This document shows positions 3,305 to 5,594 of a DNA stretch of 10,116 bases, piece after piece. Position numbers and translations under genes: made by a program. This DNA comes from Escherichia coli. GTDB taxonomy: Bacteria > Pseudomonadota > Gammaproteobacteria > Enterobacterales > Enterobacteriaceae. The DNA is taken from assembly GCF_003334305.1 (NCBI RefSeq), contig NZ_QOWS01000043.1; one strand, 5' to 3'. Within the stretch, counting starts at the first letter, position 1. The number at the start of each line of letters is the position of its first letter. The notes beneath the pieces are model-generated. The model saw only the letters and a program-made list of their open reading frames with translations, did not search any database and was not told the DNA's origin.

Positions 3305-3380
3305 CACTATTTTCTTTTTAAAAAACAACAATTTCTATTGAAATTATTAAACGCATCATAAAAATCGGCCAAAAAATATC
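3305..3380 (+). promoter_or_regulatory. AT-rich upstream activating region of the ilv operon promoter (UP-element / IHF-binding region expected here)
   Basis: About 80% A+T stretch with several A5-6 tracts (3320-3325, 3360-3364, 3371-3376) immediately upstream of the candidate core promoter. Published work on ilvGMEDA describes an upstream AT-rich activating region with an IHF site and a non-productive upstream promoter. Exact site boundaries cannot be fixed from sequence alone. Confidence 0.4.
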
Positions 3381-3421
3381 TTGTGCTATTCGCAAAATCT
3401 ATGGTAACTCTTTAGGCATTC
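3381..3421 (+). promoter_or_regulatory. Candidate core promoter and transcription start region for ilvLXGMEDA
   Basis: Candidate -35 TTGTGC (3381-3386) and candidate -10 hexamers in 3400-3410 (tatggt / taactc). A start near 3420 would give a leader of about 180 nt ending at the attenuator T-run (3596-3603), consistent with the recalled leader length. The hexamer assignment is uncertain. Confidence 0.35.
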
Positions 3422-3449
3422 CTTCGAACAAGATGCAAGAAAAGACAAA

Positions 3450-3548
3450 ATGACAGCCCTTCTACGAGTGATTAGCCTGGTCGTGATTAGCGTGGTGGTG
3501 ATTATTATCCCACCGTGCGGGGCTGCACTTGGACGAGGAAAGGCTTAG
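3450..3548 (+). CDS. ilvL: ilv operon leader peptide (32 aa): MTALLRVISLVVISVVVIIIPPCGAALGRGKA
   Basis: ATG at 3450 through TAG at 3546-3548. 15 of 32 codons encode Leu (4), Val (6) or Ile (5), the hallmark of the branched-chain amino acid attenuation leader. An intrinsic terminator lies immediately downstream. Confidence 0.9.
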   Translation: MTALLRVISLVVISVVVIIIPPCGAALGRGKA

Positions 3549-3569
3549 AGATCAAGCCTTAACGAACTA

Positions 3570-3603
3570 AGACCCCCGCACCGAAAGGTCCGGGGGTTTT
3601 TTT
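3570..3603 (+). terminator. ilv attenuator (Rho-independent terminator of the leader transcript)
   Basis: GC-rich stem acccccg (3571-3577) / cgggggt (3590-3596) followed by 8 consecutive T (3596-3603), 22 nt after the ilvL stop codon. Confidence 0.85.
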
Positions 3604-3634
3604 TGACCTTAAAAACATAACCGAGGAGCAGACA

Positions 3635-3685
3635 ATGAATAACAGCACAAAATTCTGTTTCTCAAGATTCAGGACGGGGAACTAA
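3635..3685 (+). CDS. ilvX: Small ORF ilvX (16 aa: [16 protein letters not shown]) between the attenuator and ilvG
   Basis: ATG at 3635-3637 preceded by GAGGAG (3624-3629), stop TAA at 3683-3685, two nt before the ilvG ATG. It matches the position and sequence of the described E. coli small protein IlvX as I recall it. Translation cannot be judged from sequence alone. Confidence 0.55.
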
Positions 3686-3687
3686 CT

Positions 3688-5334
3688 ATGAATGGCGCAC
3701 AGTGGGTGGTACATGCGTTGCGGGCACAGGGTGTGAACACCGTTTTCGGTTATCCGGGTGGCGCAATTATGCCGGTTTACGATGCATTGTATGACGGCGG
3801 CGTGGAGCACTTGCTGTGCCGACATGAGCAGGGTGCGGCAATGGCGGCTATCGGTTATGCCCGTGCTACCGGCAAAACTGGCGTATGTATCGCCACGTCT
3901 GGTCCGGGCGCAACCAACCTGATAACCGGGCTTGCGGACGCACTGTTAGATTCTATCCCTGTTGTTGCCATCACCGGTCAAGTGTCCGCACCGTTTATCG
4001 GCACGGACGCATTTCAGGAAGTGGATGTCCTGGGATTGTCGTTAGCCTGTACCAAGCACAGCTTTCTGGTGCAGTCGCTGGAAGAGTTGCCGCGCATTAT
4101 GGCTGAAGCATTCGACGTTGCCAGCTCAGGTCGTCCTGGTCCGGTTCTGGTCGATATCCCAAAAGATATCCAGCTAGCCAGCGGTGACCTGGAACCGTGG
4201 TTCACCACCGTTGAAAACGAAGTGACTTTCCCACATGCCGAAGTTGAGCAAGCGCGCCAGATGCTGGCAAAAGCGCAAAAACCGATGCTGTACGTTGGTG
4301 GTGGCGTGGGTATGGCGCAGGCAGTTCCTGCTTTACGAGAATTTCTCGCTACCACAAAAATGCCTGCCACCTGCACGCTGAAAGGGCTGGGCGCAGTTGA
4401 AGCAGATTATCCGTACTATCTGGGCATGCTGGGAATGCATGGCACCAAAGCGGCGAACTTCGCGGTGCAGGAGTGCGACTTGCTGATCGCCGTGGGTGCA
4501 CGTTTTGATGACCGGGTGACCGGCAAACTGAACACCTTCGCACCACACGCCAGTGTTATCCATATGGATATCGACCCGGCAGAAATGAACAAGCTGCGTC
4601 AGGCACATGTGGCATTACAAGGTGATTTAAATGCTCTGTTACCAGCATTACAGCAGCCGTTAAATATCAATGACTGGCAGCTACACTGCGCGCAGCTGCG
4701 TGATGAACATGCCTGGCGTTACGACCATCCCGGTGACGCTATCTACGCGCCATTGTTGTTAAAACAACTGTCGGATCGTAAACCTGCGGATTGCGTCGTG
4801 ACCACAGATGTGGGGCAGCACCAGATGTGGGCCGCGCAGCACATCGCACACACTCGCCCGGAAAATTTCATTACCTCCAGCGGCTTAGGCACCATGGGTT
4901 TCGGTTTACCAGCGGCGGTTGGCGCACAAGTCGCACGACCGAACGATACTGTCGTCTGTATCTCCGGTGACGGCTCTTTCATGATGAATGTGCAAGAGCT
5001 GGGCACCGTAAAACGCAAGCAGTTACCGTTGAAAATCGTCTTACTCGATAACCAACGGTTAGGGATGGTTCGACAATGGCAGCAACTGTTTTTTCAGGAA
5101 CGATACAGCGAAACCACCCTTACTGATAACCCCGATTTCCTCATGTTAGCCAGCGCCTTCGGCATCCCTGGCCAACACATCACCCGTAAAGACCAGGTTG
5201 AAGCGGCACTCGACACCATGCTGAACAGTGATGGGCCATACCTGCTTCATGTCTCAATCGACGAACTTGAGAACGTCTGGCCGCTGGTGCCGCCTGGCGC
5301 CAGTAATTCAGAAATGTTGGAGAAATTATCATGA
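3688..5334 (+). CDS. ilvG: Acetolactate synthase II (AHAS II) large catalytic subunit, intact 548 aa
   Basis: Uninterrupted 548-aa ORF starting [25 protein letters not shown] with a thiamine-diphosphate binding motif ([14 protein letters not shown]...LDN). GGGGA Shine-Dalgarno-like sequence 8 nt upstream. Followed by ilvM with a 4-nt overlap. Confidence 0.95.
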
Positions 5335-5594
5335 TGCAACATCAGGTCAATGTATCGGCTCGCTTCAATCCGGAAACCTTAGAACGTGTTTTACGCGTGG
5401 TGCGTCATCGTGGTTTCCACGTCTGCTCAATGAATATGGCTGCCGCCAGCGATGCACAAAATATAAATATCGAATTGACCGTTGCCAGCCCACGGTCGGT
5501 CGACTTACTGTTTAGTCAGTTAAATAAACTGGTGGACGTCGCACACGTTGCCATCTGCCAGAGCACAACCACATCACAACAAATCCGCGCCTGA
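5331..5594 (+). CDS. ilvM: Acetolactate synthase II small (regulatory) subunit, 87 aa
   Basis: 87-aa ORF starting [12 protein letters not shown]. Its ATG (5331-5333) overlaps the ilvG last codon and stop (tcATGA), typical of translational coupling. Size and position match IlvM. Confidence 0.9.

Follow-up and report, generated by a model that had tools for sequence, protein, structure and literature searches.

The annotated 16-codon gene ilvX of Escherichia coli as a candidate cis-acting upstream open reading frame of ilvG

The stretch of DNA considered here (the window) comprises 10,116 nucleotides of Escherichia coli (RefSeq assembly GCF_003334305.1, contig NZ_QOWS01000043.1), in which ilvL, the attenuator terminator, ilvX and ilvG follow one another in this order on the + strand. 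The relevant features are given below in window coordinates (RefSeq locus coordinates are obtained by adding 121).

3450-3548, + strand: ilvL, the 32-codon leader peptide of the ilv attenuator (open reading frame list and RefSeq, locus 3571-3669).
3572-3604, + strand: attenuator terminator hairpin CCCCCG...CGGGGG, then a run of 8 T (sequence and minimum-free-energy fold).
3623-3628, + strand: ilvX Shine-Dalgarno sequence GAGGAG, 6 nt upstream of the ilvX start codon (read from the sequence).
3623-3663, + strand: predicted mRNA hairpin (minimum-free-energy and centroid folds).
3635-3685, + strand: ilvX coding sequence, with ATG at 3635-3637, 15 further sense codons and TAA at 3683-3685 (16 codons plus TAA).
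3643-3657, no strand given: invariant core CAGCACAAAATTCTG, a 15-bp imperfect palindrome (lowest column entropies of the region).
3676-3680, + strand: ilvG Shine-Dalgarno sequence GGGGA, within ilvX codons 14-16.
3688-5334, + strand: ilvG, acetolactate synthase II large subunit, intact, its ATG 2 nt past the ilvX stop.

The 16-codon open reading frame (ORF) is the already annotated E. coli gene ilvX, and is known rather than new: RefSeq has ilvX ("peptide IlvX", WP_001387183.1) between ilvL and ilvG, and the ORF of the window is identical to it in coordinates, sequence and context. An earlier note on this DNA, which had mentioned a small protein described at this position and named the ORF ilvX, was therefore right in the identification; the ORF itself, the GAGGAG upstream of it and its end 2 nt ahead of the ilvG ATG are all read in the sequence, the two nucleotides 'ct' at 3686-3687 separating the ilvX TAA from this ATG. 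The same note correctly placed the ilvG Shine-Dalgarno sequence inside the ORF, but at 3675-3679, one base off its actual position. The ilvG ORF is unbroken over 548 aa (ORF list), so that the source strain of the window lacks the ilvG frameshift of K-12. Within the species, the ilvX region was found in 5,426 of 5,426 complete genomes, each E. coli entry inspected carries the ilvX annotation, and the 421 bases around it are 100% identical to many complete genomes, O157:H7 TR01 among them.

ilvX was reportedly first described by Hemm et al. in 2008. The gene name is also used in Salmonella studies, as well as in transcriptome, evolution and engineering papers. In one study the operon is written ilvLXGMEDA, ilvX being the small peptide gene that precedes ilvG (citing Hemm 2008/2010), and an ilvX::sfGFP translational fusion was built and measured (PMC9299463). 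Regulation of ilvX by GcvB was considered and set aside, as ilvX is enriched in GcvB RNA-interaction data, yet the ilvX fusion was not repressed (PMC9299463). Laboratory-evolution SNPs labelled 'ilvL/ilvX intergenic (+47/-39)' (PMC4166923) map to approximately 3595-3596, in the G-run of the 3' arm of the attenuator terminator and not in ilvX; such changes would weaken attenuation and leave ilvX unaffected. No stated function for IlvX was found in the accessible literature, and literature searches returned nothing useful on ribosome profiling of ilvX.

To what extent is this short frame kept in other species? Species-representative genomes were scanned with the IlvG N-terminus, yielding 80 loci that range from Enterobacterales to Vibrio, Shewanella, Aeromonas and Pasteurellaceae, and 41 Enterobacterales were placed in an almost gap-free alignment (A1) that extends from the T-run of the terminator to the ATG of ilvG. 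The attenuator terminator hairpin is conserved in all Enterobacterales loci. An ORF that starts at the same column, spans exactly 16 codons and stops 2-3 nt ahead of ilvG is present in 35 of the 41 species (the gap is 2 nt in 33 of these, E. coli included, and 3 nt in two), and the alignment of the 41 contains no indel within ilvX. Among the 35 intact ORFs, the start codon is ATG in 31 and GTG in four, and the stop codon is TAA, except for TGA in two species and TAG in one. Most of these species carry a GAGG/AGGA/GGGG-type Shine-Dalgarno sequence at the same columns, the match being weak in two of the 35 (GAGAAG in RIT691, GGTGAA in Yersinia nurmii), and the ilvG Shine-Dalgarno sequence (A1 columns 79-84) is kept as GGGG/GGAG. 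In-frame stops occur in none of the 35 species, as against 25 and 23 species with stops in the other two frames; column shuffling, a control that ignores phylogeny, would lead one to expect 5.3 species with an in-frame stop and gives zero in just 0.1% of shuffles, a P value that is optimistic because the species are related. Judged from these alignments, an ORF of the length of ilvX is within chance expectation in one genome and beyond it across species, and the ilvX frame and its signals are evolutionarily maintained, including through function-preserving changes (ATG to GTG, TAA to TGA or TAG).

The start codon is absent at the ilvX position in the remaining six Enterobacterales, namely Pluralibacter, three Photorhabdus, Edwardsiella and Budvicia. 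In the first five (loci L017, L032, L036, L038 and L047) it has been lost at A1 columns 39-41, and Photorhabdus has gained an early in-frame stop besides; premature in-frame stops are found in four sequences, all of them among these six start-less species. Budvicia (L039) carries instead a 28-codon ORF in the same frame as ilvX, which begins right past the terminator.

The product of this frame is not kept. Mean column entropy over codons 2-13 amounts to 0.63, 1.15 and 0.93 for codon positions 1, 2 and 3, respectively, and because the second position is the most variable, this pattern is the reverse of that of a protein under purifying selection. Pairwise pN/pS is 0.52-0.58 in ilvX, against 0.60-0.74 in a shifted-frame control, and is about ten times higher than in the first 60 codons of ilvG (0.05). 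Position 2 of IlvX takes 11 different residues, position 7 is occupied by F, S or C, and there is almost no restriction on positions 9-13. The same holds within E. coli, where five divergent alleles differ by three changes inside ilvX, all of which are nonsynonymous (S10P, R11T and T14A). The polymorphic positions of these five sampled alleles are 3622, 3624, 3634, 3661, 3666 and 3674, none of which falls within the 3643-3657 core; they include a common C to T change immediately 5' of the ilvX Shine-Dalgarno sequence, and in one strain GAGGAG has become GGGGAG together with an A to G change in the spacer. Taken together, the comparisons indicate that the IlvX peptide is barely constrained and that selection does not keep its amino-acid sequence. 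The earlier note had set conservation of the ORF against conservation of the nucleotides only: across relatives it is the frame, start, stop and Shine-Dalgarno sequence that are kept, and not the sequence of amino acids.

That the 16 residues of IlvX could nonetheless function in trans, for instance by modulating an ilv enzyme or as a membrane protein, is improbable in view of these results. In favour of such a role, its annotation is that of a peptide, it has been cited among detected small proteins, its length is exactly 16 residues in 35 species, and two of its residues are well kept: Lys6, found in 31 of the 35, and Cys8, found in all 35, the latter with synonymous variation of its codon (A1 columns 60-62, window 3656-3658; TGT in 30 of the intact ORFs and TGC in five). 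Against this, the remaining positions are radically replaced and pN/pS is no better than in the shifted frame, the conserved residues coincide with the palindrome of the core and with the ilvG Shine-Dalgarno sequence, the palindrome block is kept in species that have no start codon, and the counterparts of the ORF in Vibrionaceae (see below) share no sequence with ilvX.

The core in question, A1 columns 47-61 (window 3643-3657), is nearly invariant, third codon positions included, with columns 47, 50, 52 and 58 as its variable ones, and reads as an imperfect palindrome of the form CAGnAY-AAA-ATnCTG. Among the start-less species, YAGNAYAAAATNCTG is retained in Pluralibacter and Edwardsiella, whose CAGNAYAAAATNCTG core is intact despite the loss of the ilvX start, while the three Photorhabdus show one substitution in the CTG arm and Budvicia retains the core less well. 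Since it survives in species without an ilvX start, the core probably acts as a DNA or RNA signal in its own right. Folding of the palindrome itself into a local RNA hairpin was discarded as unlikely, the partner columns 50 and 58 being non-pairing in 35 of 41 species.

One candidate for such a signal is a site for Lrp, for which the binding consensus strings YAGHAWATTWTDCTR and AGAATWWWATTCT are available (PMC5554404). The core of the window matches the first at 13 of 15 positions and the second at 11 of 13 (2 mismatches in each case), and is the best match in the 10-kb window, although the two window sites with at most 2 mismatches to YAGHAWATTWTDCTR, vs 1.03 expected, are not significant in a single genome. 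Many relatives match the consensus at 14-15 of 15 positions, and three species do so perfectly (15/15) via a nonsynonymous change, K6I. Across 41 related loci (144,303 positions), 20 sites have at most 1 mismatch to the Lrp consensus, and 18 of these 20 are the ilvX core, at positions that are homologous and not independent. The variable core columns 50 and 58 are partners in the dyad and fall on degenerate positions of the consensus (H4/D12). Literature searches gave nothing useful on Lrp ChIP data at ilvL. The title of a 1996 paper by Rhee et al. concerns Lrp-DNA interactions in the ilvGMEDA leader region. According to reviews, Lrp represses ilvG(MEDA). For IHF, no match to WATCAANNNNTTR was seen by eye. 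Apart from the core, a single site in the window comes within 2 mismatches of YAGHAWATTWTDCTR; it is located at 5517-5531 (CAGTTTATTTAACTG), in the 3' part of ilvM and upstream of ilvE, where an internal promoter has been reported. On the whole, the invariant core is probably best explained by a separate nucleotide-level signal, either a candidate Lrp-type operator or part of an mRNA helix.

Could the ORF, then, be incidental, the region being kept for the candidate Lrp operator at 3643-3657, the mRNA helix and the ilvG ribosome-binding site, with a translation that is of no consequence? This is rather unlikely, although several of the observations above lend themselves to it, such as the persistence of the core block in start-less species, the concentration of the best Lrp-consensus matches on this block, the reported repression of the operon by Lrp, and the conserved third and variable second codon positions, which point to nucleotide constraint. 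An incidental ORF nevertheless leaves unexplained why the start changes to nothing but GTG and the stop to nothing but TGA or TAG, why no in-frame stop ever arises in the variable codons though the other frames often have one, why a Shine-Dalgarno sequence stands at the right distance in nearly all 35 species, and why analogous ORFs exist in Vibrionaceae; the Lrp match on which it partly relies is, moreover, within expectation in a single genome.

The helix mentioned above is a predicted one. In E. coli folds, GAGGAGCAGA (3623-3632) pairs with UCUGUUUCUC (3654-3663), leaving the ilvX AUG in a 21-nt loop. The probability that the ilvX Shine-Dalgarno sequence is paired is 0.9-1.0 in most Enterobacteriaceae (overall range there 0.53-1.0) and 0-0.7 in Pectobacteriaceae, Yersiniaceae, Erwiniaceae and Hafniaceae, so that a hairpin at this site is predicted strongly only in Enterobacteriaceae. 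Across the 41 species, 79.7% of cells at the hairpin pairs are paired, vs 77.7% in shuffles (3/500), and 5 of 10 pairs show a double change, no more than in controls, covariation thus being weak; RNAalifold returned no consensus structure for the alignment of the 41 species. Given these marginal pair counts and the lack of a compensatory excess, a conserved RNA structure is not claimed beyond Enterobacteriaceae. This hairpin, which pairs ilvX's own Shine-Dalgarno sequence, and the Lrp-like palindrome are two nucleotide-level features inside the ORF that the first reading of the sequence had missed.

Part of the region is also covered by an RNA family, as the window matches Rfam RF02744 (Rev39_5p_UTR) over its full length at 3379-3668 with 157.1 bits (gathering score 88, model positions 1-300). 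The family was described from the 5' UTR of soft-rot Enterobacteriaceae and presents the ilvL leader RNA as a cis-regulatory element, its 3' end not being treated as coding. The match runs through the ilvL leader and the attenuator and takes in the first 34 nt of ilvX, and it follows from this extent that a 'UTR' family holds the complete ilvL coding sequence and the beginning of ilvX. In the window, the last helix of the model (aaCaGaa/uuCuGuu with aug/cau), which is related to the predicted hairpin, encloses the ilvX start codon, and several of the model pairs are non-canonical in E. coli.

A similar layout recurs at a greater distance. All five Vibrionaceae loci (L049, L050, L071, L078 and L081, from Grimontia, Salinivibrio and three Vibrio species) have an ORF of 18-23 codons with a Shine-Dalgarno sequence between the attenuator and ilvG, located about 53-65 nt upstream of ilvG (which stands at 1501 of each locus), and in all five the stop TGA overlaps the ilvG ATG as ATGA. 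None of the five has sequence similarity to IlvX. In the Aeromonas, Tolumonas, Shewanella and Pasteurellaceae loci examined, no ilvX-like ORF precedes ilvG, and this absence in Aeromonas, Shewanella and Pasteurellaceae, together with the missing start codon in six Enterobacterales, makes ilvX dispensable. The idea that an upstream ORF merely fills a long spacer between the terminator and ilvG is only partly true, as in Shewanella spacers of about 100 nt occur with no ORF of this kind.

The Cys codon carried by all these frames raises the question of a second sensing leader, in which pausing at such a codon would tune ilvG translation or downstream transcription to amino acid supply. This is very improbable. 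It is true that the Cys codon is found in 35 of 35 intact ilvX ORFs, that Erwinia and Pantoea have two or three such codons in a row, and that each of the five Vibrionaceae ORFs has at least one; however, for ORFs of about 20 codons this last count is within chance by our own estimate. In ilvX the pattern is confounded by the CTGY arm of the palindrome, with which the Cys codon overlaps, and the recurrence of Cys is probably not significant. Codons for Ile, Leu and Val, the cognate signals of the operon, are missing from E. coli IlvX (and number no more than one or two in other species), and neither a terminator nor alternative hairpins follow the ORF: no terminator-like site was found at 3635-3760 on the + strand, where the fold shows weak hairpins only.

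What remains is a frame whose translation, rather than whose product, seems to matter. The pattern of conservation suggests that selection keeps the translation of a short frame ending at the ilvG start and not what this frame encodes, and ilvX is on balance most probably a cis-acting upstream ORF, which would deliver ribosomes to ilvG by termination-reinitiation and cover the RNA of about 80 nt that follows the attenuator; this reading, drawn from comparative sequence data, is held with limited confidence. On transcripts that have read through the attenuator, ribosomes would load at the strong ilvX Shine-Dalgarno sequence, translate 16 codons over the ilvG Shine-Dalgarno sequence and terminate at the UAA beside the ilvG AUG, where these ribosomes, or their 30S subunits, would re-initiate on ilvG. 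Such re-initiation would raise or time ilvG translation, and the stretch of about 80 nt past the attenuator would stay covered by ribosomes.

The earlier note had proposed that ilvX translation could couple to or modulate initiation at ilvG, a suggestion that comes from the geometry of the two frames. Conservation of the frame and not of the peptide fits this proposal; on the other hand, the ilvG ribosome-binding site is not consistently masked in the folds, with mean pairing probabilities of 0.52 for its Shine-Dalgarno sequence and 0.24 for its AUG, and a mechanism in which ilvX translation relieves the masking of this site is not supported by folding. As ilvG has its own Shine-Dalgarno sequence and a ribosome-binding site that is not consistently structured, it could initiate independently. 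In Enterobacteriaceae, ribosome loading on ilvX would itself be limited, because the ilvX Shine-Dalgarno sequence is predicted to be sequestered in the hairpin. We infer both the dependence of ilvG output on ilvX translation and the direction of the effect; a ribosome that terminates on ilvX might just as well block the ilvG ribosome-binding site.

A dual use of these few nucleotides may also be envisaged, tentatively and with some doubt, in which the same segment would serve at the RNA level as an upstream ORF delivering ribosomes to ilvG and at the DNA level as an Lrp operator (3643-3657) lying downstream of the attenuator. In that case the 'conserved' residues from Ser/Arg4 to Cys8 would merely reflect the embedded protein-binding site, and the layout seen in Vibrionaceae would have been either independently invented or kept through a complete turnover of the sequence.

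The contribution of this work is modest. The figures for a frame that is kept while its peptide is not, the Vibrionaceae counterparts and the Lrp-like palindrome within the ORF may be new. IlvX is listed among the E. coli small proteins without function, and should its peptide prove irrelevant and the ORF act in cis, ilvX ought to be regarded as a regulatory upstream ORF of ilvGMEDA and not as a small protein. The valine-resistant acetolactate synthase is encoded in this operon, which has been widely modified to produce valine and isoleucine, hence constructs that keep or delete ilvX may alter ilvG expression. The embedded Lrp-like palindrome, for its part, would locate one route of the reported repression of the operon by Lrp.

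How does ilvX compare with systems already described? In translationally coupled gene pairs, stop and start codons overlap or lie a few nucleotides apart (ATGA, TAATG) and the downstream gene is reached by termination-reinitiation. The ilvX stop 2 nt ahead of the ilvG AUG, with the ilvG Shine-Dalgarno sequence inside ilvX, corresponds to this arrangement, and the Vibrionaceae ORFs represent its classical ATGA form; the ilvX-ilvG pair departs from it in that ilvG has its own Shine-Dalgarno sequence and, according to the predicted folds, an apparently open ribosome-binding site. Another comparison is with the attenuation leaders ilvL, ivbL, leuL and trpL. Unlike these, ilvX has neither a run of Ile, Leu or Val codons nor a terminator/antiterminator pair, and sits downstream of the real attenuator. 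Like them, it is a very small reading frame that stands in the 5' leader of an operon for amino-acid biosynthesis, and as with them, it is likely the translation of ilvX, rather than its product, that matters.
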